The notes: generated from the sequence alone by a model not told the origin. 64,000 nucleotides of DNA from a virus (IMGVR_UViG_3300030419_004857:97266-161265); one strand, 5' to 3'. Shown: positions 31,213 through 64,000, counted from the first letter of the stretch. Program-made: numbers and translations.

Positions 31213-31240
31213 ATTATAGCCGACAATCAGGATTTGTCAA
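31213..31240 (-). promoter_or_regulatory. sigma70-type promoter of rIIA
   Basis: TTGACA-N16-TATAAT. Confidence 0.75.
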
Positions 31241-31718
31241 CACCGCCTTCCTTCGATTTTAGAAATTTTTTAATTGGCCTAACCAAATAATGTCCGATGA
31301 ACCCACCTATCCTTGGCATACCAAGAGAGGTTCTGATATAGTTTTCCAGTCTGGTTAACGGACATATCTCTCTAGTGAATGTAACCGTAAGGATAAAACT
31401 GTTGAGAGGCATCCATACTAAAAGTGGATACAAGAATGGTAAGATAAAAAAGGCAACAATATTTACAGCTATAACAAAAGCGTGAAAAGTTACTAATGAA
31501 TAAAAGAAAATCTTCTTTGCGAGATCTTTTTTCCTGCTTCCGGTTCTATCTTTATAAAGCTCCCTAAGCATCTCAAGGCTAACTTTTAGTGAATCATTGT
31601 CAGTATGTTGACCGATTTCTTGTTCCAATCTCGCAGTAAGTTCTCTGGCATCGTCTGCATCCAGAAAATCATCCATTATTTCTACAATACTGTTGGCTTC
31701 TTGTACACTAGTAGGCAT
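31227..31718 (-). CDS. DUF2784-like membrane protein
   Basis: TM helices with H...CPLTRLEN...GGFIGHY. Confidence 0.6.
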   Translation of the reverse strand: MPTSVQEANSIVEIMDDFLDADDARELTARLEQEIGQHTDNDSLKVSLEMLRELYKDRTGSRKKDLAKKIFFYSLVTFHAFVIAVNIVAFFILPFLYPLLVWMPLNSFILTVTFTREICPLTRLENYIRTSLGMPRIGGFIGHYLVRPIKKFLKSKEGGVDKS

Positions 31719-31750: not shown

Positions 31751-32590
31751 CTAGATAATTGCTCTACCTTTTAGACTCTCCCAATCCTTCTCTGGTCTAG
31801 CCATGAGATTAGTATTCCAAGCTCCCTGTACGGTATTAGCCTTTATGCATAAAGTTTGAGCAAGATGCATTAGGGCATTTATATCTTTGGGGAAACAGCT
31901 TCCACCAAATCCGTAGTGGCCGTCAGGTCCGGGTACGGACCAATGTGTGTTTCCTAGACGCTCATCATGTAAAGCATATTCTGCTACTTTATCGTAATCT
32001 ATATCTAGGCTTTCACAGATGGCATACATTTCATTTGCAAACGAAACTTTAACTGCAAGAAATGAATTGGTTAAATACTTTACCATTTCTGCTACCGTTG
32101 AGTCTGTTTTAATAATATGTGCGCTGGGAAATATTCTGGAATAAAACTGTTTCAGTCTTGTTGTTGCTGGTCTGGGACCACCCAGAATAACTCGTGTGGT
32201 ATTTTGAAAATCTTCTTCAGCATTACGTTCAAGCAAAAATTCTGGATTAAAAACTATCTGTGAATCTTGACATAATTCTTGTAATGACTTTGTTGTGTTT
32301 GGTGGGATGGTAGATTTGATTGCAATAATATTCTTTCTTCCGGTACTACAGGCTTGCTTCACAACTTCTTCCACTATGGAAACATCACAAGAGCCGTCTT
32401 CCTTCATGGGGGTTGGAACACAAACAAATAGTAATTCACAAACTCTAGACAGATCAAAAACATTTTTATGAGTAGATAAATCTGTACGCATCTTATCGTA
32501 AGTGTAAACCTTATAATGTGGAGAAAAACTGCTGGCTAAAGCACTTCCCACAAACCCCTGTCCAATTATTCCGACGTTCTGTATTTTCAT
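31751..32590 (-). CDS. UDP-glucose/GDP-mannose dehydrogenase family (lacks C-terminal domain)
   Basis: GQGFVG, CVPTP, KSTIPP, NPEFL, AEMVKY, GFGGSCFPKD. Confidence 0.9.
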   Translation of the reverse strand: MKIQNVGIIGQGFVGSALASSFSPHYKVYTYDKMRTDLSTHKNVFDLSRVCELLFVCVPTPMKEDGSCDVSIVEEVVKQACSTGRKNIIAIKSTIPPNTTKSLQELCQDSQIVFNPEFLLERNAEEDFQNTTRVILGGPRPATTRLKQFYSRIFPSAHIIKTDSTVAEMVKYLTNSFLAVKVSFANEMYAICESLDIDYDKVAEYALHDERLGNTHWSVPGPDGHYGFGGSCFPKDINALMHLAQTLCIKANTVQGAWNTNLMARPEKDWESLKGRAII

Positions 32591-33792
32591 AGTTCTGTTA
32601 CCGCCTCTTTTATAAAAGAGATTGCATGATTAGCATCTTCAATAGAAAACGTAAGAGGAGGCCGAAGTCTTATTGATCTTTTTCCAGATTTTAAAACGAG
32701 CATATTTTTCGAGAGCTTAGATATAACAAGATCTCTAACATATTCCTCAGAAAGATCGAATGCTATCATTAATCCTCTACCACGAACATTATCTATTACT
32801 GGCAGCTTTCTTAACTCCCAAAGTAAATGTCTTCCAATATCTTCTGCATTGTTAATTAAATTATTTTTCTGAATTGCATCTATTATGTATCTCGATCTAA
32901 TCATATCTACTATATTGCCACCCCAAGTAGAATTAATCCTACCACTGGTGTTAAAAACATTGTCCTTAACCTCATCTATTCTCTCAGTTGAACAAAATCC
33001 ACACACCTGAGTTTTCTTACCAAAGCACATAATATCTGGAACAATATTAAAATGTTCGTATGCCCACATTTTACCAGTTAGCCCCATACCCGTCTGTACT
33101 TCATCAAATATAAGTAAGCAATCATTGTCGTCTGCTATACGTCTAAGATTAGTAAAAAACTCTAGAGGAAAATGATTGTCGCCGCCCTCCCCTTGTATGG
33201 GTTCTATAATAATAGCAGCTACTTCACTATGAATACGTTTTTCTATATCTTTCCAATCAGGCTCTACCGTTGTCCATCTAAACTTGGGGAATAGAGCAGT
33301 TTTTTCTGGGGTAGTATTAGTCAGGGACAGAGTATACCCCGTCCTTCCATGAAAAGCATTCTTAAGATGGAAGACATCTAGATTGTTAATGTCGACTGTG
33401 TGGCTGTAGTTTAACTTTTTAGCTTTCCAGTCAAAGGCAGCTTTCAATGCATTCTCTACAGCCAACGCCCCACCATCTATAAAGAAATAGTGTTTGAAGT
33501 CTGGAGTAATCTCAGAGAACTTGTCAACAAAATCGGCGTACTCCTCTGAGTACATATCGCTATTGGCCAATTTAATCCTGCCTGAAATACCCATTTCGTT
33601 TTGAGCTTTCAGCAGCGCCGGATGTCTCCATCCTAATGGTTGGCTGGCAAACTGTGAATAACAATCAAGATATTTATTACCATCAGTATCAACCACCCAA
33701 GATCCTTCACTGGACATTGGGTCAACGACAACATGAAATCCGTCTGTTAATATATGTTTTGAAAGCCTGTCTATAACTTGAGAGTTAGACAT
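32587..33792 (-). CDS. lat: L-lysine 6-transaminase-like class III aminotransferase
   Basis: GALAVENALKAAFDWK, AFHGRTGYTLSLT, EPIQGEGGD, DEVQTG, FGKKTQVCG, RINSTWGG. Confidence 0.85.
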   Translation of the reverse strand: MSNSQVIDRLSKHILTDGFHVVVDPMSSEGSWVVDTDGNKYLDCYSQFASQPLGWRHPALLKAQNEMGISGRIKLANSDMYSEEYADFVDKFSEITPDFKHYFFIDGGALAVENALKAAFDWKAKKLNYSHTVDINNLDVFHLKNAFHGRTGYTLSLTNTTPEKTALFPKFRWTTVEPDWKDIEKRIHSEVAAIIIEPIQGEGGDNHFPLEFFTNLRRIADDNDCLLIFDEVQTGMGLTGKMWAYEHFNIVPDIMCFGKKTQVCGFCSTERIDEVKDNVFNTSGRINSTWGGNIVDMIRSRYIIDAIQKNNLINNAEDIGRHLLWELRKLPVIDNVRGRGLMIAFDLSEEYVRDLVISKLSKNMLVLKSGKRSIRLRPPLTFSIEDANHAISFIKEAVTEL

Positions 33793-34577
33793 TTTACTGC
33801 TCCTCCAGCCTTCATAAATTCTGACATGTTACACCAATGGGCATTATACTGGCTTCCAAATGAATCAATTCCTTCAATACAAGGTGTTATTACATTGTTG
33901 TTAACTTCAACAGTATTACATATAAACTGTTCGGCTTCGGGGTTGCTCACATTTAGTATATCCACAGGTTTTCCGCTGAATAAACATCTCTCAAATATAG
34001 ACTTCATCATTTTGTCAGCAGATTCTTCAGAAAATGCATCACGATGATAAACAATTCTATCATTCATAGGAAAGAAACACGTATCTAAATGATAAAAATT
34101 CGGATTTACTAGTTCGCAAGAAACATAATCAACACCTAATGCATTAGCAATTATTTTGTGGGACTTTTTGCTTGTCCTAAAACCATATCCCAGATATAGA
34201 ACATCGTTAAAGAAAAGAGCGTCTCCAGCACCCTCAAAATAGATATCTTTTGGTAACTCGACTACACGATAGCCGTTATTAAGAAACCATTTCTTAAAAA
34301 GAACACTCTCCCCCTGTCTCTCTTTATGTTTATTGTTTGATAGTATAACAACATTATCCATTACTAATCCAGCATTAGCGGTAAAAACCATATCTGGAAA
34401 ATGCGGATGTGGTTTTATTAAACGAACCCTAGCTCCCAGATCAGTTATAGTATCATATAATATCTCCCACTGATCTTTTGCTAGATCGGTGTCTGGCTCA
34501 TTGTGTATATCCATCCAAGCGTTGATTTCGTAATCAACATTATAATGCTCTGGTGAACACATTAAGAATTCTGGCAT
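33771..34577 (-). CDS. amidinotransferase/DDAH-family (arginine dihydrolase-like) enzyme
   Basis: YEINAWM, PDMVFTANAG, ERQGE, FEGAGD, YHLDTC, KAGGAVKCLTL. Confidence 0.85.
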   Translation of the reverse strand: MPEFLMCSPEHYNVDYEINAWMDIHNEPDTDLAKDQWEILYDTITDLGARVRLIKPHPHFPDMVFTANAGLVMDNVVILSNNKHKERQGESVLFKKWFLNNGYRVVELPKDIYFEGAGDALFFNDVLYLGYGFRTSKKSHKIIANALGVDYVSCELVNPNFYHLDTCFFPMNDRIVYHRDAFSEESADKMMKSIFERCLFSGKPVDILNVSNPEAEQFICNTVEVNNNVITPCIEGIDSFGSQYNAHWCNMSEFMKAGGAVKCLTLKL

Positions 34578-34581
34578 CCAG

Positions 34582-36075
34582 CTACTCCGATCCAGTATTC
34601 ATTCCTTGTGGAAAGTTTAGGCTATCGCCGTGATTGACAGTCCAAGCAACTTCATGAGTAACGGATCTGAAAGTTCGAGCAGCACTAGGCTGTCCGTTGC
34701 CAGACTTCTTTACTCCACCAAAACCCAAATGGCTCTCAGCAGCAATGCTGCCACCATTCCAATAACCCAAACCAAAATCACATTGGTTGCGAATTCTTCT
34801 AGCAACCTTGAAATCATTTGTTAGAACCCCCAAAGACAATCCATAATCAGTATCATTATAAATATTAATGGCTTCTGTTACGGTGTCGTAAGGAATGATT
34901 GCAACGTGTGGTCCAAAGACTTCATTCTTTAGGTATGGAGCATCTCTCCACTCTGTCTTATAAACTGTTGGAGTCATAAATAACCCGTTTGGGTCAGATC
35001 TAACCCCAGCCAATAAAACATCAACATTGTTGTCAGTGAAGACCATGCTGTTAAAATGTTCAACTTTATCCAACCCCTGTTTGTTTACAAGGGGTCCGTA
35101 AAAAGTCTCGGGATCAAATGGGTCTCCTGTTTTGAGCATAGCACTTCTTGCTGCAAACTCTTCTGCAAATGGTTTATATAAAGATCTATGAATAATCATT
35201 CTACCGGCAGAAACACATCTCTGTCCTGACAATTTGTAAGCGCTAGCTAGACAAGCAGCCATAGCCATATCAAAATTGGCATCTTCATGCACAATTACAG
35301 CAGACTTACTGCCCATCTCACACGAGCAAGTCTTGTGCCAACTTTCTGCACATACTTTTCGGACGTGCATTCCCACTTCTGCACTACCAGTAAAACACAC
35401 ATGATCTACTGGTTGGTGAATTATCCAGTTGCCAGTTTTTCCATCTCCTTGTAGAAGATTAAAAACACCGGGTGGAAATCCCGCATCGTGATATAGCTGT
35501 GCTGTTATTTGACCAATTAGAGGAACATCCTCACTAGGTTTTAGAATTACAGTATTACCCTCAACAAGAGCAGGACCAGCGCACCAAAAACCGCCAATCG
35601 CAAAAGGAAAATTAAAAGGCGCAATAATTGCAACGACTCCTTTTGGCTTCCTAAGCATGTACGCATCTTTTTCCGGCAATTCTGAAGCAATTGCTTCACC
35701 ATAAGGCATTCTCCCTGTACCAAAAGCATATTGTGCCATATGCAGAGCTTCATTTACCTCTGCAATAGATTCATTTAAAACCTTTCCAGTTTCTACACTG
35801 ATAGCTTTCGCTATATAATCTCTTCTTTCCTCTATAAGATTAGCTAGATTAAGAAAGTATTCCGCTCTTTGAACTCTACTATACTCTCTCCAACCTAAGA
35901 AAGCCTCTTTAGCAAAATGATAAGTGCTTTCTATCTCGGCTAATTGGGCTTTAGGAACATCTCCTATGACTTCTTGGGTGGCTGGATTAATAGTCTTAAA
36001 AGAATCCTTTTCGCTTCCATCACTCCAACATCCGTTAATGTAATGCTTTCCCTTGGTAATAAGATCTGTAGTCAT
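34582..36075 (-). CDS. aldehyde dehydrogenase
   Basis: PFNFP, KPSE, FTGS, EMGSK, GQRC, EVFGP, FGGVKKSG. Confidence 0.95.
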   Translation of the reverse strand: MTTDLITKGKHYINGCWSDGSEKDSFKTINPATQEVIGDVPKAQLAEIESTYHFAKEAFLGWREYSRVQRAEYFLNLANLIEERRDYIAKAISVETGKVLNESIAEVNEALHMAQYAFGTGRMPYGEAIASELPEKDAYMLRKPKGVVAIIAPFNFPFAIGGFWCAGPALVEGNTVILKPSEDVPLIGQITAQLYHDAGFPPGVFNLLQGDGKTGNWIIHQPVDHVCFTGSAEVGMHVRKVCAESWHKTCSCEMGSKSAVIVHEDANFDMAMAACLASAYKLSGQRCVSAGRMIIHRSLYKPFAEEFAARSAMLKTGDPFDPETFYGPLVNKQGLDKVEHFNSMVFTDNNVDVLLAGVRSDPNGLFMTPTVYKTEWRDAPYLKNEVFGPHVAIIPYDTVTEAINIYNDTDYGLSLGVLTNDFKVARRIRNQCDFGLGYWNGGSIAAESHLGFGGVKKSGNGQPSAARTFRSVTHEVAWTVNHGDSLNFPQGMNTGSE

Positions 36076-36077
36076 TA

Positions 36078-36578
36078 TTATAATCCTTTCGTACTATTCA
36101 TTAAGTCCCGAACTGAATTTTGACAGAACCCTTTAGATCCTCTCTCAATTAGTTCTATAATTATTCCACCCATGTAGTCTAATGGCTTAGTAAAAATTTG
36201 CCTGAGATCATCGTCTGGACAATCAATAATATCATCTGTTAGAAACTCGACTGTTCCTTTACTTCTCCAATCGTTAACTATACTGTCTATGTCTTTAACT
36301 TTATAAGCTATATGATGCACACCTCCAACCCCTCCCCTAGCTTCAACCCAGTCACCAACAATTGATCCGGGGGTTCCATCAGAAATAAAAATTTCTGGAC
36401 CTTCACGAACTAAAACAATTGGAAGAAGAGGAGGAATAAGAGCATAACATTCTGCCTTAGAGCCATCATCAAAATCTATATCAAACTCCGCTCCAACTTC
36501 ATAGTTGAGCATTGATTGAAAAAAATTAACAGCCTTATGTCTGTCTGCAACTCTAAGAGCAATATGATCCAGTTTCAT
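36078..36578 (-). CDS. VOC-fold metalloenzyme (HPPD C-domain-like)
   Basis: LDHIA, GGVHHIAY, LRQIFTKP, IELIER, GF. Confidence 0.75.
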   Translation of the reverse strand: MKLDHIALRVADRHKAVNFFQSMLNYEVGAEFDIDFDDGSKAECYALIPPLLPIVLVREGPEIFISDGTPGSIVGDWVEARGGVGGVHHIAYKVKDIDSIVNDWRSKGTVEFLTDDIIDCPDDDLRQIFTKPLDYMGGIIIELIERGSKGFCQNSVRDLMNSTKGL

Positions 36579-36979
36579 AGCGGGTTTCCGTACCTATCCT
36601 TTCCCTCAAGATTGTCTATTTCTTCCCACACTTCTTCCCATCCGGTTTCGTCATCCCCTCTAACCCTAGCCGCTTTATCGTCTATATATATAGCACCGGC
36701 TGGCTTGCCCATCCAAGCATAGGTATATTTAACACCATGCTTCTCAAGCCAGTCGGTCCACTCTCTGTAACCCCTTTCGTACTGACGATGGATATTGCCA
36801 TTCTCTCTATCGCCGTAACGGGCTGTATATAGAACAACCTCAAAACCCATGTCGTATAGTTTATTAACTTGTTCTATACCATGAGGTAGAGGATCAGCCT
36901 TAGCGTATTCACCGCCATGCTTTTTTCCTGCTATCACTCCGTCACAATCTACGATTAATCTTTTCGCTGAATCTGGCAT
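36575..36979 (-). CDS. HAD-like phosphatase (capsule-biosynthesis type)
   Basis: VDCDGVI, YTAR, GKP, YIDDKA. Confidence 0.8.
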   Translation of the reverse strand: MPDSAKRLIVDCDGVIAGKKHGGEYAKADPLPHGIEQVNKLYDMGFEVVLYTARYGDRENGNIHRQYERGYREWTDWLEKHGVKYTYAWMGKPAGAIYIDDKAARVRGDDETGWEEVWEEIDNLEGKDRYGNPL

Positions 36980-37049
36980 TGTTTTCTCCTATGGTGAGAT
37001 TTCCACATAAGATAGTAACTAAACCATTCAAAAAAAACAAATCAAATAG

Positions 37050-37123
37050 TACCCTCGGCAGGACTCGAACCTGCAACCTACGGTTTAGAAGACCGTTGCT
37101 CTGTCCTGTTGAGCTACGAAGGC
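37050..37123 (-). tRNA. tRNA-Arg(UCU)
   Basis: cloverleaf GCCTTCG...ACGGT-CTTCTAA-ACCGT...GGTTCGAGTCC...CGAGGGT-A. Confidence 0.92.
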
Positions 37124-42495: not shown

Positions 42496-42762
42496 TTATG
42501 CCTTATCCCTATCTATACGGTTCAATATTTCCCGTAGTTCGTCGGTAGTCATTATTACGCTCTGCTTGCTCAATATTTTGGTATCATCAAACCATGTCTG
42601 AATAAAAGACACTTCTTTATTACCCTCGGAAGTAAAGGCTTTGGTTTCCCAATGAAAGCTACCCATGCCTTCGTCACATTTATATATTAACCGTCCCATG
42701 AAGTTCGCCTTGTGTTGATAGACTGCATTGAATTGCTCTTCCCAACAAAGCGTCCTTCGCAT
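42496..42762 (-). CDS. hypothetical protein
   Basis: ORF overlapping the aldolase end; real start likely near 42699. Confidence 0.45.
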   Translation of the reverse strand: MRRTLCWEEQFNAVYQHKANFMGRLIYKCDEGMGSFHWETKAFTSEGNKEVSFIQTWFDDTKILSKQSVIMTTDELREILNRIDRDKA

Positions 42763-43654
42763 CTTCCTTATTACCTTCGGCCCAATACTTTAGAGCATTG
42801 TGTTGTAATTCTCTCCCAAATGAGAACGACATATACCAAGGTAAATCATTTTCATTATTAATAGCATTAAGATTTTCCACCGCAACTCCATCATCCTGTC
42901 CACCACTAAGAAAAGCAATTATCGGAACGGCAGATGGAACTGTTCGCTTGAACGACCTCACAGTAAATTCCGCAGTAACGCTTGGATCATTCTTTATACC
43001 TGAAGCATACCCATTTAGAATCATGTTAGGTTTAAGTATCATATATTCCAACTTAACCTTTTCATAGAACATGGCATCAAATACATGATGCAACACTCTT
43101 TCAGTTACATCGGCAGCTTCATCTATACAATGAAATCCATCCATTATGATTTCTGGTTCGACAATAGGGACAACACCTTCAAGCTGGCACTTTTTAGCAT
43201 ACCTAGCAAGGTTCCAAGCGTTAGCGAGAATACAAGAACCACTATCATCAACATTAATAATAGCACGCCACTTGGCGAATTCGGCCCCCAAGTCTTTATA
43301 GAGGCTGAGTCTTTCTGTAAGTCCATCCAGCCCCTCCGTTAGTTTACATCCTACGCCATATGGTTTAGCCCCCGTGTCAACTTTAATACCCAGCGTAATC
43401 CCCTTTTCCCTTAAAGGTTGTACGGTGGGTTCACCATCCATAATATGTTTTAAGGTTTCCTCATACAAGATAACACCACTAATATAGTCCTCTAGAGCTT
43501 CTGTGGAAAACAGCGTGTGCCTATAATTATGCCTAGTTCCCGGCGTGGAGTCTACACCAACGGAATCAAACCTTTTTTTGATTGTTGGGCTACTCTCATC
43601 TGCTGCCAGAATACCCTTTCCATTCACGCTGAGTTTTTCAATGATGTCTTGCAT
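42680..43654 (-). CDS. fructose-bisphosphate aldolase class I
   Basis: GILAADES, GIKVD, FAKWR, VPIVEPE, LKPNM, FLSGGQ, SFSFGR. Confidence 0.93.
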   Translation of the reverse strand: MQDIIEKLSVNGKGILAADESSPTIKKRFDSVGVDSTPGTRHNYRHTLFSTEALEDYISGVILYEETLKHIMDGEPTVQPLREKGITLGIKVDTGAKPYGVGCKLTEGLDGLTERLSLYKDLGAEFAKWRAIINVDDSGSCILANAWNLARYAKKCQLEGVVPIVEPEIIMDGFHCIDEAADVTERVLHHVFDAMFYEKVKLEYMILKPNMILNGYASGIKNDPSVTAEFTVRSFKRTVPSAVPIIAFLSGGQDDGVAVENLNAINNENDLPWYMSFSFGRELQHNALKYWAEGNKEDAKDALLGRAIQCSLSTQGELHGTVNI

Positions 43655-55700: not shown

Positions 55701-56063
55701 ATGATGTACGTTAAGATGATTATCGCCGCATTAATTATGATGTGTGGTTCTACTGTGTCAAATGCCGCTGAATGGGTTCTTATCGACCCGCCTACTTATG
55801 TGAGTAGAGACTGCAACAACTGTACGATTACGTTCAGCAAGGGTGGCTATACTATTACTACCATTGACGGTCTATGTGTATTAAAGAAAGGTACATATGG
55901 TATTATCAACGGGAGTGGCGCGCTCTTGCATAATATAGTTCCGCCCTATTGTCACTGTGGATGCAATCATTATAGTCACCAGCACAGTTACCTATTCCAA
56001 AGGCCACGCTGGTCACACTATTCTATTTTCCACTATAGACGATACCGGAGATGCGTCAGGTAA
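55701..56063 (+). CDS. secreted Cys/His-rich hypothetical protein (only credible plus-strand gene)
   Basis: RBS GGAGG, signal peptide, own promoters and terminator. Confidence 0.65.
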   Translation: MMYVKMIIAALIMMCGSTVSNAAEWVLIDPPTYVSRDCNNCTITFSKGGYTITTIDGLCVLKKGTYGIINGSGALLHNIVPPYCHCGCNHYSHQHSYLFQRPRWSHYSIFHYRRYRRCVR

Positions 56064-56082
56064 CTTCTAACTATTCTATTAA

Positions 56083-56123
56083 GAATCCTCGGTAGGGATA
56101 ACACCTTGCCGGGGATTTTTTTA
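56083..56123 (+). terminator. rho-independent terminator
   Basis: AATCCTCGGTAGGG...CCTTGCCGGGGATT then a T-run. Confidence 0.75.
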
Positions 56124-56311
56124 TACTGACTCACGCCGCGTACTTAAACACCTCCTATAGGAGAAACTGGATCATTTACCTAGTACATTACGATGCTATT
56201 AAATATTTTTCACTGGCCCAGCGCTTCCCGCGCACGAGCGGGCTAGCTCTCGTAGGACGAGGCTGGTACGCCCCGTTCTACCTTAACCTATAGGTTGTCA
56301 AGACCTATATT

Positions 56312-56344
56312 AAAAAAAACCCGCCCCGGCGAACCGGAGCGGGC
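56312..56344 (-). terminator. rho-independent terminator with CCGG-TTCG-CCGG cap
   Basis: GC stem plus T8; similar to 61332..61366. Confidence 0.8.
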
Positions 56345-56460
56345 TTCTTACTAATAGCAGTTGTTGGTTAGTCTTCAGATAATGCGTATCCTATAACGAA
56401 GCTACCAAGTCCTATTAGTGCGACCATACAAATTATCATCTCCATGATGTTGACCCCCCT

Positions 56461-57783
56461 CTAAGCGGCCAACACCGCCTTGCTGGAAAAGATTCGGGCA
56501 AAGTCATCGTCCTCGTATTCCGCAGCGCGGTTACAAACACGATCCCACTGGTTGTCGTTGTAGTTGACCAACTTGCCACCAAGCTGATCGAACTTCACCC
56601 AGTTGTCATTTCCAAGGAACTGACCAGCGCGGGTGACACTGTTGACAACCCCGAACAGGTTACGATTCTCGCCGGGAGTCTTCGACTCGAACATAACCCA
56701 TGCTTCGAGAACGGCAGTCGCTTCACGCTTCTGCAACTTCTCGATGTCGGAAACCGCAGCGATAACCGACTTCATCGTGTTGCCTTCGTTCTCCTTCAGG
56801 CGAACACCCAGCAGTCTCTCAATACCAGCGGGGAGCAGGGGAATCTGCACCTCGATGTTATTGCGAATCTTCTTGGAAAGCTGATCGAGGTCGATGTCAC
56901 CGATGTGGCGAACACGAATCTCACTACCCTTAGTTTGTCCCCAGATGCATCCGTTCATGCAGATGGCTCGGAACAGACTGGGCATCGACAACACGTTGCG
57001 TTTGCCGATCTCACAGTTTCCAATGCTCACCATCCCGCCGTAATCGGAATCCTCTTCCTCGCGGATGGTATCGGGAATCAGGACGTTGCCGTAAATAGTA
57101 TCGGCATTGCCACGCCAGTGGCTCAGACGGCCACTCGGGATAATATCCTCGATCTGCTCCAAGTACCAACGATTGTCAACCTCGGCGTATTTCTCACTGA
57201 GGAAAGCACGCATCGTGCCATCGTCGTAGGTGCGAACCTTGTACTTGGTATCAGGCTTGTCCTCACGGATTCGACGGAACCCGTTTTCGATAATAGCCTG
57301 AATCGTCTCAGCATCCTGATAGTCACGCTTGTAACGAGTCTCCTCTTTGGCGTTGACCTGATCCTCAGTCAGCCAGCGAGTAAAACCCGTGCCTTTGCCC
57401 TCGCACAACTTCGCTGTCATTTGTGAGAGCGCATGGTTGTTAGGAACAAAGTTCTGATCGTCAACAGAGACGACAAACCGGGGTTTGCCATCAACGTCCT
57501 CGATTCCGAATTCCAACTCCGAAACTGGAACAAGGTAGTCCTGACGATGGCCTTGCTCGGCCTCCAACAATTCCATCCCCTGATCGTAGCTGATCGTCTT
57601 GGGATACCAGTGCTTTGACACATGGCCGAACCCCTCATCAGAGGCAACGCCTTGCTGGTCATAAACCCACTGGCCTTCTTGGTTCGCTCCGTCATACGCT
57701 TCAATTCTTTCGTTCATCTTCGTCACTCCAAAAGTCTGGTTTCTGTACTTGTTCATAGTAACATAAGTAGCCAAGAAAGTCAA
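56461..57783 (-). CDS. DUF932/DUF945-like phage protein (start probably 57717)
   Basis: RAFLSEKY...DN, GNCEIG, RAICMNG, RH. Confidence 0.65.
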   Translation of the reverse strand: MTFLATYVTMNKYRNQTFGVTKMNERIEAYDGANQEGQWVYDQQGVASDEGFGHVSKHWYPKTISYDQGMELLEAEQGHRQDYLVPVSELEFGIEDVDGKPRFVVSVDDQNFVPNNHALSQMTAKLCEGKGTGFTRWLTEDQVNAKEETRYKRDYQDAETIQAIIENGFRRIREDKPDTKYKVRTYDDGTMRAFLSEKYAEVDNRWYLEQIEDIIPSGRLSHWRGNADTIYGNVLIPDTIREEEDSDYGGMVSIGNCEIGKRNVLSMPSLFRAICMNGCIWGQTKGSEIRVRHIGDIDLDQLSKKIRNNIEVQIPLLPAGIERLLGVRLKENEGNTMKSVIAAVSDIEKLQKREATAVLEAWVMFESKTPGENRNLFGVVNSVTRAGQFLGNDNWVKFDQLGGKLVNYNDNQWDRVCNRAAEYEDDDFARIFSSKAVLAA

Positions 57784-57837
57784 GAGAAAAGCAGGGCCAC
57801 CCCGTAGGGTGACCCCACTTTCTCCCGCGACGGATGA

Positions 57838-58209
57838 CTACTCCGAAGCGGTCTCGGCCTCGTCACTGTCGGCCATCAGGCTTGCGAGGTAATCGCCAGC
57901 CAAGGCAGCAGCCTCGTCGTAAGACGAACCGCTCCGACCCTGCCTCTTGAGCTTGGGCAGTTTGATGCCCCGCTCTGCGAGTGCGGGAGTCAGCGCGTTC
58001 TTCTTCTGACGCGCCTGTTCAACCGACCGACCCAACTCATCAGCAACGTCGGCAATTGTGCCGCCGTTCTGGTGAACCTTGACATACGCCTCAACGAATG
58101 CCGTTGCCGAAATCGCCTCTGCTCGTTGCTTCTTCTCACTCATGTTTTCATCTCCGTTCGCTTCCAAAGTCTTGCCGGTGAAACACTCACCAACTCTCAA
58201 TGTCTCCAT
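57838..58209 (-). CDS. small HTH-like protein (start probably 58143)
   Basis: TIADVADELGRS. Confidence 0.55.
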   Translation of the reverse strand: METLRVGECFTGKTLEANGDENMSEKKQRAEAISATAFVEAYVKVHQNGGTIADVADELGRSVEQARQKKNALTPALAERGIKLPKLKRQGRSGSSYDEAAALAGDYLASLMADSDEAETASE

Positions 58210-58360
58210 TATATGTTATCGTCACGATATGTCAAGAGTCTTTAGCCCCGTTTGGCAAAAAAACGAAATTTTTTTCACTGACTGGCACACAAGGCGACCC
58301 CGTGACATGATCGGCGTGGGTTAGCAGGGACGGCTTACATCGCCGCGTTTTACCCGAACT
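58208..58360 (-). repeat. early promoter/hairpin cassette, copy B
   Basis: TTGACA-N16(CGATAA)-TATAAT, CTGGCAC box, CGGCG hairpin, GTTTTACCCGAAC box. Confidence 0.75.
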
Positions 58361-58429
58361 ATCTCGAAAAGTACCGCATATATAGTTCGAATGCATAAAG
58401 ACCTACATAGGCCCACGCTGCTATAATTA

Positions 58430-58870
58430 TCAAGAGGTCTCGCATAGCTCACCTTCCGGCTCTAGGGCCATCACTGTCGGGGCGTTCCGATCATTGTCCT
58501 TATACATAGCAACGTAGTTTGCTCTATATACCGGGATCGGATGCTGATCATCACACACACCAGTCCGCTCTACAAACGTCTCGTGCTTATAAGGGTTATA
58601 CATCACCCACACCTGTTTATCGTAGAACCCATTCCACACCATCCGGTCAACGCTACACGGATCTTCCAACAGGTAACCGCTCACACCGGCGTGGACGTTC
58701 TTCTTTCCTTCACGTCGAACCCTCGCCTGTCCAGCCTTGCCGACGAGGAACTTACAATCCCGCAACGATAGCAGGTGGGCGTGGTCCACGATAAGCCCGG
58801 ACTGTCTCACACTCCACAGTTTCCGGTGGAGATTCCAGTAGACATAAACCCGCTTATTATAGTCGATCAT
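58430..58870 (-). CDS. conserved phage hypothetical protein
   Basis: VYVYWNLHRKLWSVR...RVRREGKKNVHA...YNPY. Confidence 0.7.
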   Translation of the reverse strand: MIDYNKRVYVYWNLHRKLWSVRQSGLIVDHAHLLSLRDCKFLVGKAGQARVRREGKKNVHAGVSGYLLEDPCSVDRMVWNGFYDKQVWVMYNPYKHETFVERTGVCDDQHPIPVYRANYVAMYKDNDRNAPTVMALEPEGELCETS

Positions 58871-59067
58871 TCCTCATCCCCGAACAGGTTATCAAAACAC
58901 GGGCCGCACATCCCACTTATGAGAACTTCCCGTTCATCCGCCGACAGGTAGGGCATGGCGTTCTGAATCAGTTCGCCATTCTCCCAAGCTTCATAGTCCT
59001 CCGCTTGGACCTGCATTTCCACCTGCCCCTTGCACCGGTTACACGTTGCCCACAATTTCGTCATCAT
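58867..59067 (-). CDS. small Zn-binding phage protein
   Basis: CNRC...IQNAMPYLSADEREVLISGMCGPC. Confidence 0.7.
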   Translation of the reverse strand: MMTKLWATCNRCKGQVEMQVQAEDYEAWENGELIQNAMPYLSADEREVLISGMCGPCFDNLFGDEE

Positions 59068-59921
59068 TTCGTCACCTTCCTAGAATAAGAACCTTTACCC
59101 TTCAACTCTCGCAACGCCGTCGCCGCTTCCGTTCCTTTGGGCTGTGTCCCGTGCAGCAGCAGAGCGAAACTCTGGTCCCGCAAGCTAGGCCGAGCAGCGT
59201 GGGAATCGTCGTGGTCAATTTCCGCTCCAAGACGATCCGCTTCCGCTTCCGAGAACACAACCGTGGCAGACCGCAAACCCTCCGTGGCAATCAAGTGATC
59301 GTCACGTCCACCATAGGATGCCGTCAATACCATATTCTCTGGGATATTATCCCGATTGTCAACCCAGTATTTTAGGCTTTTGGTGTAGGCATAGAACAGT
59401 CTATCGGGATGCGTTTCGGCAATAAACATCCACGCCTTGAAATAGCTCGCGTTGAAGAAATCACCCGCAACGTGAATCCGACAGATGCCGAGATTCTCGG
59501 GCATTGAATCCCTGAGCATATCGGACATATGCCAATCGTTGCCGGGATGCTCACTCAACTGCCGGAAGTTGTGGGATCGGGAATTGTACACGTTGGTGTA
59601 TTGGGCTTCCTGCGATGCCGAGAAACAACGGAACTTCGTATTCGGCCCATCGACAACTTTCCGCTTGCCGCTATAATCAACAGTCACAGCTTTCGATAGG
59701 CACTCGTTAGCAAACGGGCACGAGTGTCCCGACAACAGGTCAAGACTATAGATCTTGCGTCCACCTTCAAGGTACGCCGCCAGTTCAGGAACTTCCGACA
59801 TTGCGTGTGTCTTGGCGTTGGCTCGGGAGTAGTTGACGGTTTCCAGCGGATAGATTGATTGTGCCATTGTGTGCCCTTGTGTTGTGTTTGTTACTCCCCC
59901 ATTATATACAGTTATCGGCAC
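59064..59921 (-). CDS. Gp88-like (radical-SAM-related) phage protein (start probably 59867)
   Basis: SCPFANEC, CFSA, RIHVAGDFF, FYAYTKS. Confidence 0.7.
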   Translation of the reverse strand: MPITVYNGGVTNTTQGHTMAQSIYPLETVNYSRANAKTHAMSEVPELAAYLEGGRKIYSLDLLSGHSCPFANECLSKAVTVDYSGKRKVVDGPNTKFRCFSASQEAQYTNVYNSRSHNFRQLSEHPGNDWHMSDMLRDSMPENLGICRIHVAGDFFNASYFKAWMFIAETHPDRLFYAYTKSLKYWVDNRDNIPENMVLTASYGGRDDHLIATEGLRSATVVFSEAEADRLGAEIDHDDSHAARPSLRDQSFALLLHGTQPKGTEAATALRELKGKGSYSRKVTK

Positions 59922-60048
59922 ATGTCAACCCCCAACTCCAACAAAATCCGACATCCCACCAAAATATTTCGCTGGCCCACCGTGGCCCTTCACGGCGAGC
60001 GGCAAGGATGTGGCGCGACACATCCGCCGCTGCGTTTTACCCGAACCG
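59901..60048 (-). repeat. early promoter/hairpin cassette, copy C
   Basis: same boxes; hairpin AGCGGC-GGATGTG/CACATCC-GCCGCT. Confidence 0.75.
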
Positions 60049-60195
60049 CTACTTACCCTCCCCTCGCATTTTTTTCCAAGTTGTCTTGTCGCAGAACGCC
60101 CACCCGTCCGCGACCAATTTCTTGATAGCATCCCACTGGGCCTTAGTGGAATCCTTCACCCGCTTGAACTCGTCGCCCTTACGCAATGTCTTCAT
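60049..60195 (-). CDS. small hypothetical protein (48 aa, not in track)
   Basis: MKTLRKGDEFKRVKD...GWAFCDKTTWKK; RBS GGGAG. Confidence 0.5.
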   Translation of the reverse strand: MKTLRKGDEFKRVKDSTKAQWDAIKKLVADGWAFCDKTTWKKMRGEGK

Positions 60196-60320
60196 TCGTC
60201 ATCTCCCTAAGTTCTTGGTTATCATCAACCATCATGCCGGTGAAGATTACCACCTCACCCTCGGTATCCTCACCAACGTGGCACAGCGGAAAGTGTTTCA
60301 ACGCAATCCTGAAAACGTCA

Positions 60321-60884
60321 TCAAGCGTCATCAAAGTCAAGCTCCTTCTGTCCGGGCAACGGGTACGGGAACTGATCGCTAGGTGCGGAATCTTCTTCCA
60401 TCACCTTACGCTCATCTTCCCAAAGTTTCGGATCATCACGGTAGTCAACGTGTTCGAGACTAGAAATCATCCGGTTGCCAAGGCTATTCTCGTTAGCTTC
60501 CGGGTTGACCAGTTGCGAAGCCAGATTGATGAAATCCAGCACTTCCTGAATGGTCATGTATCCGCACACGTCATCGTAGAAAGTTTCCACGTCCTCGCTA
60601 CCGATAGGCCCGGTGAATCCCGGCACGCCAACCCAAGACAGGTTGCTACCAGTAAGGTAGGCAGCACACTCAGCGAGGTTGGAACCCCAGAATTCCCCAT
60701 TCGCAGCCGCCTTGGCGGGGGCGTCGAATCCCGCATTCCTCACCTCTTGGTCGGCGTAGTTCCCCGGTCCAAACTGAACCGAAACGGTAACGCCGTTGGG
60801 CAGATCCAGATGGAATCCCTTGCCTTCAGTAATCCGCATAGCCTTGTCGCGCATGTCATTCATCTCCCTATTCATTCCAACCAA
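60321..60884 (-). CDS. hypothetical phage protein
   Basis: GFHLDLPNGVTVSVQFGPGNY. Confidence 0.65.
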   Translation of the reverse strand: MVGMNREMNDMRDKAMRITEGKGFHLDLPNGVTVSVQFGPGNYADQEVRNAGFDAPAKAAANGEFWGSNLAECAAYLTGSNLSWVGVPGFTGPIGSEDVETFYDDVCGYMTIQEVLDFINLASQLVNPEANENSLGNRMISSLEHVDYRDDPKLWEDERKVMEEDSAPSDQFPYPLPGQKELDFDDA

Positions 60885-60922
60885 GCCAGTCAGCTAACCA
60901 ACAAACGAAACCCAATAACACT

Positions 60923-60951
60923 AGTATACAGGCAAACGATCCCCATGTCAA
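60923..60951 (-). promoter_or_regulatory. sigma70-type promoter
   Basis: TTGACA-N17-TATACT. Confidence 0.65.
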
Positions 60952-61157
60952 CATAGCTGCTCCATAATTGCGGTGCGATTCTGTGACGACCGTGTCCGGT
61001 TGCGTTTAGTTCGCCTGTCCTTGTGCTTTCCCGCTCCCGCCTTATTGACGGAATGAATCCTTCCAACCTTCCACGGCTCGTCGTCAAGTGTGATCGTGAT
61101 GCAGTCAGCACCAAACTCGATCATTCCACGGTTCATCTTCTTCGTCTTGCGTTTCAT
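60948..61157 (-). CDS. small basic protein
   Basis: AGKHKDRRTKRNRTRS; directly downstream of cassette D promoter. Confidence 0.6.
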   Translation of the reverse strand: MKRKTKKMNRGMIEFGADCITITLDDEPWKVGRIHSVNKAGAGKHKDRRTKRNRTRSSQNRTAIMEQLC

Positions 61158-61186
61158 GTCTTGCTCCGTCGTTGCGTTACTCCTCC

Positions 61187-61325
61187 ATTATAGTATATTA
61201 TCGTCCAATGTCAACACCGATCTTGAGGTTTTCTCGATTTATTTTCTGACTCACTGGCACGGGGGTTGCTTCTCTTCGAGCGGCGAGCTTGTGGAAAGAC
61301 AAGCTCGCCGCGCAGTTTTACCCCA
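61187..61325 (-). repeat. early promoter/hairpin cassette, copy D
   Basis: same boxes; 13-bp stem GCGGCGAGCTTGT/ACAAGCTCGCCGC. Confidence 0.75.
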
Positions 61326-61331
61326 TCCAAT

Positions 61332-61366
61332 AAAAAACCCCCGCACCGGCGAACCGGAACGGGGGC
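61332..61366 (-). terminator. rho-independent terminator
   Basis: CCCCCG...CCGG-TTCG-CCGG...CGGGGG plus T6. Confidence 0.8.
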
Positions 61367-61411
61367 CAGCGACTGAGGAAAGGGCGAAACTCCAAGCCGC
61401 TGTATGTAATA

Positions 61412-61586
61412 TGGGTGGGCGGGACTTACAATATTACCCGCATCTTTTCGGGGTTGGATATGGCAACGGGTTTGACCCGCTTCCCTACTTCCGAACCACT
61501 TCGCACAGCCTCACCCAGTCGGGCCTACTCTGTGCTTGGTGTGCGTTACCGTCTCCAACTGGCTCCGGTTATTCCGCCACCACCCT
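61412..61586 (-). ncRNA. expanded tRNA-like RNA (class II/Leu-like scaffold)
   Basis: GGGTGG/CCACCC acceptor, TGGCGGAAT...AACGC D-arm, GCGGG/CCCGC T-stem; arms enlarged by hairpins. Confidence 0.6.
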
Positions 61587-61604
61587 AAACGGGGAGCTAC
61601 CCCG

Positions 61605-61781
61605 CTACTTAGTTTCCTCCAATGTCACTTTGATCTTCTGAGGTGCGTTCTTGCCGAGAATGTACTTCTGGATGTAGATGGTATTGACCACTGGGGCCAC
61701 CCCCTCATCCGGCGTCTCGCTATATCGCACCGTGTTCTTGGTTTCCTTTTCCAGTTCAAACGTCGCGGTTGTCGTCTTCAT
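61605..61781 (-). CDS. small hypothetical protein (58 aa, not in track)
   Basis: MKTTTATFELEKETKNTVRYSE...TIYIQK...PQKIKVTLE. Confidence 0.6.
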   Translation of the reverse strand: MKTTTATFELEKETKNTVRYSETPDEGVAPVVNTIYIQKYILGKNAPQKIKVTLEETK

Positions 61782-61783
61782 GC

Positions 61784-61963
61784 TTACGCCCTTCGCAGGT
61801 TACTAATCTTGGGTTGTGAGAACGTCTTGTGTGTCCCATCGTCTTGTGCGATGATGACATAGACGCCTTTGGGACCATTCCCAACCTTCTCAATGCGACC
61901 ACTCCGAGCCTTGTCGTGGTAGTCAAACTTCACGCTCGCGCCTCTTCCAATGTACGTCGTCAT
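61784..61963 (-). CDS. small Sm/WYL-like protein (59 aa, not in track)
   Basis: KFDYHDKARSG...GPKG...KTFS; paralog of 28753..28992. Confidence 0.6.
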   Translation of the reverse strand: MTTYIGRGASVKFDYHDKARSGRIEKVGNGPKGVYVIIAQDDGTHKTFSQPKISNLRRA

Positions 61964-62265
61964 TCAACCGTCTCCTCTTCACCAAACAAACTTGCCATTT
62001 CAGCCGCAGCCATCTGCGACTTGATCATCCTGTACACCACGCCGACCACAGCCATACCCGCTGCGGTTCGTGCCGCTTCCGCTTCCTCGCTTTCCATACC
62101 AGTAGTGAGGAAGTTGGTCAGCAGGAAGCTGATAGCCGCCAGCAGATCGGGTTGCTCTCGGAGCAACTCCTCAGTAATTTCCAGTGCGAAGTTGCCGAAG
62201 TCCTGTTGTGTGGATTTCTCCATCACAGCAATCGTACACTCTCGCGTCACTCTCGGAATCGTCAT
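61960..62265 (-). CDS. hypothetical protein
   Basis: downstream of promoter 62300-62327; related to 49717..50013. Confidence 0.6.
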   Translation of the reverse strand: MTIPRVTRECTIAVMEKSTQQDFGNFALEITEELLREQPDLLAAISFLLTNFLTTGMESEEAEAARTAAGMAVVGVVYRMIKSQMAAAEMASLFGEEETVE

Positions 62266-62299
62266 CTCGTCGCCTTTCTGTTTGCCGTTTCGATATCCA

Positions 62300-62327
62300 A
62301 TTATACCACAGGTGCTGTGGTTGTCAA
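62300..62327 (-). promoter_or_regulatory. sigma70-type promoter
   Basis: TTGACA-N16-TATAAT. Confidence 0.75.
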
Positions 62328-62330
62328 GCC

Positions 62331-62534
62331 CTAATAACAGCCTTCGCTTTCCCCGTGCCAGATTTCGTCAGCGATTGCGAGGGCGTCGTCCTCGTCCTCG
62401 ACATCCGCCACGCATTCGTAAACGAAGTCTTCCGGGCCATCCGCCACGGGTCGCCACACCTCAAACACCCCACCGTATCGGGGGCAGTAGACAACCTGAA
62501 TGCCATCAATCTCGTAAACCACTTCGCCGTGCAT
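62331..62534 (-). CDS. acidic hypothetical protein, paralog of 63502..63822
   Basis: DGIQVV..P.Y...EVW...CVAD shared. Confidence 0.65.
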   Translation of the reverse strand: MHGEVVYEIDGIQVVYCPRYGGVFEVWRPVADGPEDFVYECVADVEDEDDALAIADEIWHGESEGCY

Positions 62535-62566
62535 CTCGTTCTCCCTTTCGTTTGCGTTACTCCCCC

Positions 62567-62720
62567 ATTATAGTATATTATCGGCATATGTCAAGGCCAC
62601 TCTCCACTAAATCCGGCACTTTCTCAAAAAAATCCGCTGGCTGGCACACAAGCCGACCCCGCGACATCAAGCGGCGCGGTTGTCCAAAGACACCGCGCCG
62701 TCCCGTTTCACCCGAACCGG
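62567..62720 (-). repeat. early promoter/hairpin cassette, copy E
   Basis: same boxes; 62641-62669 matches 58282-58310 at 26/29 nt. Confidence 0.75.
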
Positions 62721-62815
62721 GTATATAAAACAACCGCCACTCCCGGCCCCGATGAAATATATAAGTATATAAAACAGGGCGACCAACTCGGGAGCAGCGG
62801 CTATATATAATAAAG

Positions 62816-62889
62816 CGAGGACGGCGGGATTCGAACCCGCAACCACCGGATAGACAATCCGACACTCTAGCCTGTTGAGTTACGTCCCC
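62816..62889 (-). tRNA. tRNA-Asp(GUC), atypical U37
   Basis: GGGGACG...TCGGA-TTGTCTA-TCCGG...GGTTCGAATCC...CGTCCTC-G. Confidence 0.85.
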
Positions 62890-62892
62890 GGA

Positions 62893-63075
62893 TCTATAGC
62901 AGGTGGCAAGCCTTTCCACTTTTCACCCTTCACGCTAGAAGGCTTTGACTGGGCTGCTATATGTAAGGTACTAGCCCTATTTATCTCCACCCCTTCTCGG
63001 GGTTTGTAGGCGTGGCTAGATTTACGGCTGTGCCGCTCTGACGCCTCGTTGTTCACTGGTATACACCAGCTACAT
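62893..63075 (-). ncRNA. unknown structured RNA between tRNA-like genes
   Basis: nested helices TATAGCAG/CTGCTATA, AAGCCTT/AAGGCTT, CTAGCC/GGCTAG, ACCCC/GGGGT, CTGGT/ACCAG. Confidence 0.45.
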
Positions 63076-63083
63076 AAAAGTGC

Positions 63084-63229
63084 TGCCCCCGGAGGGATTC
63101 GAACCAAACGCCGCCGGGACGTTTACGGGGTGAAAAAGTGTGTACACACTTACCGGTATCTGTACTGGACACCGGCCCGCCACGATTCTACGGCTTACAG
63201 CCGCGCTCATGCCACCGAGCTACAAGGGC
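63084..63229 (-). ncRNA. tRNA-like RNA (GUA loop) with structured insertion of about 75 nt
   Basis: GCCCTTG/CGGGGGC acceptor, GCTC/GAGC D-stem, GCGG-CTGTAAG-CCGT, GGTTCGAATCC. Confidence 0.6.
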
Positions 63230-63242
63230 TTCACTTGTTTCA

Positions 63243-63256
63243 ATTGTAAAAGAACG
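63243..63256 (-). promoter_or_regulatory. boxA-like antitermination element, preceded by a 13-bp hairpin at 63265-63319
   Basis: CGTTCTTTTACAAT versus rrn boxA TGCTCTTTAACAA. Confidence 0.55.
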
Positions 63257-63400
63257 CTGTATTATCTCCCCCCGGCGGGAGTCGGCTAGCACCTACCAAT
63301 TGGTTACCGCCGGGGGGAGTTGTTGTGCCGCGTTTATACCCAGTCGGTGGCTGTTAGGCTTTCACTTCACCGATAGGGAGCGGCGTTGTTTCGTGCGTGT

Positions 63401-63429
63401 ATTTTACCAGACACGCGGCTGGTTGTCAA
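63401..63429 (-). promoter_or_regulatory. promoter of the stable-RNA operon
   Basis: TTGACA-N17-TAAAAT with extended TG. Confidence 0.75.
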
Positions 63430-63501
63430 GGTTTCTTTTCCATCATCCGCAAAGAATTGCGAGAATGACCAACCACAGTGGCACGTCCATTGTCGTTCCT
63501 C

Positions 63502-63822: not shown

Positions 63823-63848
63823 TATAATATATTATCGACATTTTGCAA
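63821..63848 (-). promoter_or_regulatory. cassette-type promoter, copy F
   Basis: TTGCAA-N16(CGATAA)-TATAAT. Confidence 0.65.
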
Positions 63849-64000
63849 CCCCAATCTGCACATTATTCCGGAATTTTATCAAAGTTTTTTTTGTCGTAAG
63901 TCCTTATGCGGTAACGAGTTATGGGTCGCCGGTCTGCCCGGCAGCCGGGCCCGTGTCAAGCCGTATTCTGGTTTTCCGGCACGATTATCAGGATCGGCTT

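Follow-up and report, generated by a model that had tools for sequence, protein, structure and literature searches.

A 64,000-nucleotide stretch of phage DNA (IMGVR_UViG_3300030419_004857:97266-161265, hereafter the window) carries four adjacent genes that encode a single-domain VOC metalloenzyme (VOC), an aldehyde dehydrogenase (ALDH), a guanidino-group hydrolase of the ArgZ type (GME) and a class III aminotransferase (AT). We see an even chance that this module converts basic amino acids of the host to acidic ones, releasing extra nitrogen and yielding reducing power. In the proposed series of reactions, GME would hydrolyze L-arginine to L-ornithine, 2 NH3 and CO2; AT would move the omega-amino group of ornithine, and probably that of lysine, to 2-oxoglutarate, giving glutamate and either glutamate-5-semialdehyde or 2-aminoadipate-6-semialdehyde; and ALDH would oxidize the semialdehyde to glutamate or 2-aminoadipate with NAD(P)+. 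We infer all three steps from homology, conserved residues (in GME, those of the active site) and gene coupling. From auxiliary metabolic genes one can learn which resources of the host are limiting for the production of marine viruses, and arginine contains four nitrogen atoms; with an ArgZ-type dihydrolase hard-wired to an aminotransferase and a dehydrogenase, a virus would have built its own means of mobilizing amino-acid nitrogen. The module is abundant and, within the data examined, occurs in viral contigs only. An initial annotation, made from the sequence alone, had placed a tightly coupled four-gene operon at 32587-36578, and its coordinates proved exact, with four co-directional ORFs in that interval.

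Conservation of the gene cluster among phages

We performed neighborhood searches anchored on each protein in turn. The initial annotation was to count as refuted if the four genes were never co-conserved; they are co-conserved in at least 21 IMG/VR contigs and in other assemblies, so this refutation fails. Wherever GME was at least 48% identical to that of the window, ALDH, GME and AT were contiguous (21 of 21 IMG/VR loci) and VOC lay upstream in most cases; the contiguous ALDH-GME-AT arrangement was also present in independent ENA and JGI assemblies. Homologs of AT with at least 61% identity occurred inside the cluster only, and the 22-nt overlap between GME and AT had the same length in every related locus, with flanking and accessory genes shuffled around the conserved ALDH-GME-AT core. 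None of the 80 best cellular GME loci, from Verrucomicrobiota, Planctomycetota, Cyanobacteria, Dormibacterota and others, has ALDH-GME-AT, and on this sample a cellular origin of the cluster was rejected. The cellular relatives of GME in this best-80 set are at most 46% identical, and by sequence GME forms a phage-only clade. On one contig of Verrucomicrobiales, a lat-ALDH pair of the conventional kind lies approximately 2 kb from GME.

The VOC-anchored set comprised 80 viral loci. ALDH was present in 58 of them, nearly always directly downstream of VOC, and a protein of ~360 aa with a Sacchrp_dh domain, resembling lysine 6-dehydrogenase (LysDH), was encoded within a few kb in 41. GME-AT was found in 16 of the 80, always directly behind ALDH, and 42 of the 58 VOC-ALDH loci are without it. 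In a maximum-likelihood tree of ALDH (55 rows), a fully supported clade of 13, all with GME-AT, includes the window; a clade of 32 is entirely without GME-AT, and a clade of 9 is mixed. Mapped on this tree, GME-AT was gained or lost at least three times, each time at the 3' end of ALDH. On the basis of these distributions and the tree, we regard the cluster as two sub-modules, VOC-ALDH and GME-AT, with repeated, position-specific association, VOC-ALDH being the older and wider unit. In most phages VOC-ALDH would be fed by the LysDH-like enzyme, and in the present lineage by GME-AT.

In one relative, ALDH and GME are separated by a 121-aa SET-domain-like ORF (L021:4188-4553), and the place of VOC is taken by a 291-aa RXYLT1-like protein. 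Homologs of GME, VOC and/or the Lat-like AT are also found far apart on the IMG/VR jumbo-phage contigs 3300032334_002567 (381 kb; L044, L251, L285), 3300020172_006270 (223 kb; L049, L293) and 3300049215_000771 (533 kb; L236, L281), so that phages of very large size have these enzymes too, but not as a cluster.

GME as a putative arginine dihydrolase

Against structures in the PDB, GME aligned over its full length with the N-domain of ArgZ/AgrE (E 7e-60, ~42-45% identity), whereas dimethylarginine dimethylaminohydrolase (DDAH) structures were matched at E 5e-6 only. The DDAH models NF045659 and NF045658 gave 222.7 and 42.8 bits, short of their cut-offs of 300 and 450. Cys263, His163, Glu115, Asn68 (in the TAN motif), Arg87, Arg134 and Asp165 of GME align to identical residues of ArgZ/AgrE, and none of them varies in 19 relatives from phages and cells. 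The earlier assignment as an amidinotransferase-fold hydrolase of ArgZ type holds. We take Asn68 to be the TAN-motif asparagine of ArgZ (Asn71), tied to the second hydrolytic step, and Arg87 and Arg134 to be the two arginines that bind the alpha-carboxylate of the substrate in ArgZ and DDAH. If these residues have the roles that we assume, the substrate should therefore have an amino-acid end of the length of arginine. GME is named here as a putative arginine dihydrolase. Homoarginine had also been suggested as a substrate, and nothing in our analysis speaks for it.

The cyanobacterial enzymes ArgZ (Sll1336) and AgrE (Alr4995) (PDB: 6juy, 6lrf) share with GME the catalytic Cys/His/Glu, the TAN asparagine and the two arginines. 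The phage protein differs from them in being a stand-alone enzyme of 268 aa without the C-terminal ornithine-cyclodeaminase-type domain, and in its partner enzymes. A solitary ArgZ-like GME (gp5, 37% identical) is encoded by Ralstonia phage RsoM2USA (MG752970.1 1-11941), in a block with ThyA-like, dCMP deaminase, T4 beta-glucosyltransferase-like and CofD-like proteins, all annotated as hypothetical.

The aminotransferase and the aldehyde dehydrogenase

The closest match of AT was by far the L-lysine 6-transaminase Lat of Mycobacterium tuberculosis (E 5e-103), the next class III family following at 3e-46 or weaker; the astC model gave 157 bits. Lys259, Arg150, Glu202 and Arg377 of AT align to Lys300, Arg170, Glu243 and Arg422 of Lat, i.e., the pyridoxal phosphate lysine, the glutamate switch and the two arginines, and are invariant in 11 phage homologs. 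The description of AT as a Lat-like aminotransferase is therefore upheld, with the difference that AT is without ~25 residues corresponding to Lat 199-225.

ALDH is a clear member of its superfamily (Pfam Aldedh, E 2.5e-126). Its best NCBIfam match was HpaE; the methylmalonate-semialdehyde dehydrogenase (MMSDH) model gave 245 bits and the AstD models 268-278 bits against cut-offs of 514-579. The residues N155, E253, R286-C287, E385 and E109 are invariant, so that the hydrolytic set Asn155, Glu253 and Cys287 is kept and Arg286 directly precedes the catalytic cysteine. In ALDH7A1, Arg301-Cys302 together with Glu121 anchor the L-amino-acid end of aminoadipate semialdehyde, and in ALDH4A1, Lys347-Cys348 and Glu165 do the same for glutamate semialdehyde (PMC13162559, PMC11362210). 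The pyrroline-5-carboxylate dehydrogenase of Thermus thermophilus has GQKC at the position of Arg286-Cys287. Short-segment PDB searches with the anchor loop of ALDH did not return ALDH7A1 among the alignments listed. Taken by its sequence, ALDH is not a piperideine-6-carboxylate (P6C) dehydrogenase of the ALDH7 type, and it probably represents an uncharacterized subfamily that acts on a carboxylate-bearing (amino acid) semialdehyde. Across all four enzymes, the catalytic motifs that had been called intact are present and invariant among relatives.

Amino acid metabolism genes beside the cluster in sister phages

The Sacchrp_dh protein of sister phages has the L-lysine 6-dehydrogenase 3ABI (PMC10413350) as its best solved relative (E 6e-21, same length), with the AASS saccharopine dehydrogenase domain next in the PDB and saccharopine reductase after it; it has no NCBIfam match. 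3ABI is PH1688 of Pyrococcus horikoshii; identity to it is low, and the LysDH-like gene was not found in the present window or genome. Carboxyspermidine dehydrogenase was considered for this protein and rejected, as no structure of that enzyme was among the PDB matches and lysine 6-dehydrogenase was the best. A Lat-type AT and a LysDH-type enzyme, unrelated to each other, are thus both tied to ALDH, and 2-aminoadipate semialdehyde is a product of either family.

Sister phages also have genes of the ornithine cyclodeaminase/mu-crystallin (OCD) family close to the cluster, and an OCD homolog (61.5% identical) is encoded elsewhere in this genome (G000:C1:14009-14920). For the latter gene the best model was archaeal alanine dehydrogenase (225 bits, cut-off 409). 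Its start is overlapped by a gene for GDP-mannose 4,6-dehydratase (G000:C1:12918-14920; L093:2919-4927), an odd pairing of sugar and amino-acid genes. An Ldh_2 (DpkA-family) gene is found near the VOC-ALDH pair in locus L178, a 155-kb phage contig without GME-AT, where a Volactin/MreB-like actin-fold gene directly follows VOC-ALDH (L178:9313-10566). As far as can be judged from their families, the LysDH-like, OCD and Ldh_2 neighbors fit a metabolism of arginine, ornithine and lysine, and they strengthen the arginine/lysine theme of the initial annotation.

The OCD genes could also be read in terms of biosynthetic supply, with the cluster providing ornithine, proline, pipecolate or 2-aminoadipate for polyamines, osmoprotection or modification of virion or DNA. 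A survey of polyamine genes in the virosphere reported that phages encode polyamine enzymes and that arginase is missing from them (PMC9992855), a gap that an ArgZ-type enzyme could fill, and in RsoM2USA the solitary GME stands beside ThyA-like, dCMP deaminase and beta-glucosyltransferase-like genes. We consider such a role improbable, as AT and ALDH, coming right after the hydrolase, would use up the ornithine instead of supplying it, and near the cluster in relatives it is ThyX that appears, not a hydroxymethylase. Polyamine supply in particular was rejected because the genome search found no AdoMetDC/SpeD, no ornithine or arginine decarboxylase and no proline dehydrogenase. DNA hypermodification, raised because of the RsoM2USA context, was likewise set aside, nothing comparable flanking the cluster clade.

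The VOC protein

In the proposed conversion of basic to acidic amino acids, VOC would be a metal enzyme acting just before or just after the ALDH step. It matches Pfam Glyoxalase_4 (E 7e-8) and carries an invariant His/His/Glu facial triad (His5, His89 and Glu142). Further invariant positions are E62, H88, Q127-x-F-T-x-P, K149-G-F-C and, in all, three cysteines. Among NCBIfam models, methylmalonyl-CoA epimerase (MMCE) has the best E-value, with all curated cut-offs far off: TIGR03081 (MMCE) gave 34.8 bits against 114.95 and TIGR01263 (4-hydroxyphenylpyruvate dioxygenase, HPPD) 32.2 bits against 277, VOC being a single domain and not a two-barrel protein. No DUF1338/HglS match was found in Pfam at E up to 0.01. 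The AF2 model (pLDDT 85) has a C-terminal helix at 153-162, and the motifs QIFTKP and ELIERG-KGF align to the C terminus of HPPD, followed by this helix. In Foldseek searches of the model, MMCE gave the best E-value (4e-11, query-normalized TM-score 0.55-0.64) and the catalytic domain of hydroxymandelate synthase (HMS)/HPPD the highest query-normalized TM-scores (0.71-0.74). VOC thus shares with HPPD/HMS, HglS and MMCE the paired beta-alpha-beta-beta-beta module and the His/His/Glu metal site, combining HPPD-like motifs with MMCE-like size. It differs from HPPD (~350-390 aa) in having one domain of 166 aa, with the extra invariant Glu62 and the three invariant cysteines; HglS is ~450 aa long.

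The family comprises 606 cluster representatives among 1.84 billion proteins, nearly all of 150-200 aa. Its homologs are metagenomic, and each one with a contig examined is viral; the exact VOC protein is found on 37 contigs and relatives on hundreds. In terms of sequence and model, the features of VOC lie between MMCE and the HPPD catalytic domain, and it may be either a 2-oxoacid dioxygenase or an epimerase/isomerase. MMCE and glyoxalase I have a fourth metal ligand; Glu62 could play this part in VOC, in which case O2 activation would be disfavored. The suggestion that VOC is a minimal HPPD-like 2-oxoacid dioxygenase has the HPPD motifs and TM-scores on its side and is no better supported than an epimerase/isomerase. 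Similarly, an HglS-like 2-oxoadipate dioxygenase is possible, and is not favored over an epimerase/isomerase because of the MMCE-side features and the occurrence of VOC without ALDH at beta-oxidation genes.

A rival reading, along the lines of the initial annotation, has the phages run lysine down to 2-oxoglutarate. Lat, or LysDH in sister phages, would then produce aminoadipate semialdehyde, ALDH 2-aminoadipate, a host aminotransferase or the OCD-family dehydrogenase 2-oxoadipate, and an HglS-like VOC, by decarboxylation and hydroxylation of the latter, 2-hydroxyglutarate, with GME acting on homoarginine or being an add-on. Such a route would agree with the Lat family and the LysDH-like neighbor, both of which indicate aminoadipate semialdehyde, with the nearly constant adjacency of VOC and ALDH, and with the HPPD-type motifs (QIFTKP, ELIERG-KGF, C-terminal helix) and top query-normalized TM-scores of VOC (0.72-0.74 to the HMS/HPPD catalytic domain). 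Nevertheless we think it improbable. VOC has no DUF1338/HglS match and reaches 32 bits with the HPPD model (cut-off 277); MMCE is slightly ahead by NCBIfam and by Foldseek E-values; and Glu62, if it is the fourth ligand, would disfavor O2 activation. The alpha-transamination step is missing, and the strict GME-AT coupling would go unexplained because GME keeps its arginine-length binding residues.

Alternatively, the cluster might combine two unrelated functions in a hypervariable auxiliary island, with VOC-ALDH acting on a non-amino-acid substrate and GME-AT forming a separate arginine/ornithine couple. VOC-ALDH might, for example, be a semialdehyde pair of the ring-cleavage type, or VOC might be an epimerase like MMCE that works with a dehydrogenase of the (methyl)malonate-semialdehyde type in connection with the beta-oxidation genes of the phage. 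MMCE is indeed the top Foldseek and NCBIfam relative of VOC, HpaE is the best NCBIfam match of ALDH, with MMSDH at 245 bits, and VOC occurs without ALDH beside genes for enoyl-CoA hydratase and 3-hydroxyacyl-CoA dehydrogenase in loci L179/L180, where a DUF2784 gene directly follows it; the 42 of 58 loci with VOC-ALDH and no GME-AT point the same way. We regard this as quite unlikely all the same: GME of at least 48% identity and AT of at least 61% never occur without this ALDH, the repeated gain or loss of GME-AT took place exactly at the 3' end of ALDH, VOC-ALDH usually has a lysine-6-dehydrogenase-like enzyme as its third partner, and ALDH keeps the hydrolytic Glu253.

Relation to known pathways

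The order of chemistry proposed for GME, AT and ALDH is that of the AstB-AstC-AstD core of the arginine succinyltransferase pathway in Escherichia coli and Pseudomonas, i.e., a guanidino dihydrolase that releases 2 NH3 and CO2, a class III omega-aminotransferase and a semialdehyde dehydrogenase, and in the ast operon the ALDH gene adjoins the dihydrolase gene. The phage module differs in that its dihydrolase is of the ArgZ type, its aminotransferase is of the Lat type and its ALDH is not AstD. It also has no AstA or AstE, so its substrate would be free, not N-succinylated, arginine. The net chemistry is also that of arginase-RocD-RocA, with phage enzymes of different lineages. For lysine, the counterpart is Lat with P6C dehydrogenase in Mycobacterium, Streptomyces and Flavobacterium: AT is closest to Lat and ALDH has the Arg-Cys dyad of ALDH7A1, whereas AT is ~25 residues shorter, ALDH is not of the ALDH7 type and a guanidino hydrolase is inserted between the genes. 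We found no description in the literature of a phage arginine dihydrolase, of DDAH-like or OCD auxiliary genes, or of such an Arg/Lys breakdown module in viruses. The enzymes belong to known superfamilies; what is new is that the composition is specific to phages and that one enzyme family, that of VOC, is poorly understood. The module consists of four small soluble enzymes, among them a VOC whose family is unstudied and an ALDH whose subfamily has a substrate anchor like that of ALDH7.

Several observations weigh against the conversion of arginine and lysine as we propose it. None of the three enzymes reaches the cut-off of the model that would name its reaction: GME scores 248.9 bits with the arginine dihydrolase domain model NF052232 (cut-off 450), AT 475 bits, in two stretches, with LAT_fam TIGR03251 (cut-off 520.8), a shortfall due to the ~25-residue deletion, and ALDH 289 bits with the glutamate semialdehyde dehydrogenase model (cut-off 648) and 272.1 with the ALDH7-type P6C dehydrogenase model NF050084 (cut-off 730). 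ALDH reaches no NCBIfam equivalog cut-off at all, a dozen families scoring ~270-310 bits, and its Glu109 corresponds to ALDH7A1 Glu121 by register only (Asn155 versus Asn167). The Arg-Cys dyad is also found in methylmalonate-semialdehyde dehydrogenases and therefore points to a carboxylated substrate without saying which. Lat enzymes are known to act on lysine and are not known to act on ornithine. More distant homologs occur alone, GME at 31-45% identity in ~55 further viral loci and AT at 45-59% identity in 27, many of them in phages of 100-530 kb. VOC, found without ALDH-GME-AT in L179/L180, has a role that the three steps do not explain.

A more far-reaching possibility is a route for free arginine and lysine built by marine phages from parts that were clustered in no cellular genome examined, in which the phage-restricted VOC, as a new minimal single-barrel dioxygenase of the HPPD/HglS type or a new epimerase, completes the conversion to an entry compound of the tricarboxylic acid cycle. 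We think this unlikely; if true, the virus would make nucleotides with the help of ammonium, glutamate and 2-oxoglutarate won from the nitrogen-richest amino acids of its host.

Genomic setting and other neighboring genes

The record is a 161-kb IMG/VR virus estimated by CheckV to be 100% complete, and the window is its final 64 kb. An rIIA gene lies 1.4 kb downstream of the cluster, and with the record rated complete, a phage origin holds. Close homologs come from Tara and other ocean metagenomes. The junctions are tight (Table 1), with gaps of 2 nt between VOC and ALDH and 4 nt between ALDH and GME and the overlap of 22 nt between GME and AT. Packing extends past the four genes on both sides: the stop of a HAD-like gene overlaps the start of VOC by 4 nt, and a dehydrogenase-like gene (P0125) overlaps the stop of AT by 4 nt (ATGA) and is translationally coupled to it. 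The four enzyme genes are therefore part of a packed run of at least seven genes. They are not a self-contained four-gene operon; they form two sub-modules of differing distribution within this longer run.

Table 1. Features of the packed gene run and its borders, with positions counted from the first nucleotide of the window
Feature	Positions	Strand	Match
Sigma-70 consensus TTGACA-16-TATAAT, 12/12 matches, at the run's downstream end, before rIIA	31213..31240	-	
163-aa DUF2784 membrane protein, last gene of the packed run	31227..31718	-	Pfam DUF2784
279-aa short nucleotide-sugar-dehydrogenase-like protein (P0125)	31751..32590	-	Pfam UDPG_MGDP_dh_N + central domain
401-aa class III aminotransferase AT (P0004), L-lysine 6-transaminase family	32587..33792	-	TIGR03251, M. 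tuberculosis Lat
268-aa ArgZ-like guanidino-group hydrolase GME (P0003), putative arginine dihydrolase	33771..34577	-	PDB ArgZ/AgrE match
497-aa aldehyde dehydrogenase ALDH (P0002)	34582..36075	-	Pfam Aldedh
166-aa single-domain VOC metalloenzyme (P0001), heading the VOC-ALDH pair	36078..36578	-	Pfam Glyoxalase_4
134-aa HAD-like phosphatase (P0126)	36575..36979	-	TIGR01689 (capsule-biosynthesis phosphatase) at 52 bits (below cut-off), phrog_1238
tRNA-Arg (anticodon TCT), just before the first gene of the run	37049..37123	-	ARAGORN

P0125 scores 197.9 bits with the nucleotide-sugar dehydrogenase model TIGR03026, above its cut-off of 189.8. It is without the C-terminal UDP-binding domain, and it keeps the NPEFL motif and invariant counterparts of the UDP-glucose dehydrogenase catalytic residues (Cys232, Lys171, Asn175 and Asp236). 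Its AF2 model is poor (pLDDT 65.6, with residues 209-279 below 50). The short form of ~280 aa is widespread in marine phages without the cluster (L174:7001-7849, L176:7001-7855; one member is on 176 contigs), where it stands beside PMM, PALP, glycosyltransferase and NeuB genes. A part in the amino-acid route, as an imine reductase or an alcohol-to-acid oxidase, was rejected because of these sugar contexts, for which reason we also think that P0125 probably serves a function of its own, related to sugars, and merely shares the packed run.

The HAD-like gene is syntenic upstream of VOC in the closest relatives, and in many VOC-ALDH loci the LysDH-like gene is separated from ALDH by a homolog (~30% identical). 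The DUF2784 gene is syntenic in close relatives. The sigma-70 site marks the downstream boundary of the unit; in a scan for promoters and terminators within the cluster, the number of sites was not above that in shuffles, and the position of this one site is all that is noteworthy.

Other auxiliary genes around the cluster encode GlmS-like, class I aldolase, 3-hydroxyacyl-CoA dehydrogenase and GMP reductase-like proteins, and a tmRNA is also present. The class I fructose-bisphosphate aldolase gene (window 42680-43654; L005:9436-10404, L026:10413-11477, L031:9981-10949) recurs a few genes from the cluster in several lineages, and in some of these directly follows AT or a conserved 140-aa protein of unknown kind. 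In a nucleotide search against GenBank phages, the tRNA-Arg was the sole match of the region, with 86-95% identity to the tRNA-Arg of T4-like Yersinia, Salmonella and Escherichia phages; it stands directly upstream of a run that encodes a putative arginine-degrading enzyme. Over the final 8 kb of the record (window 56000-64000), G+C climbs from ~0.39 to ~0.52.

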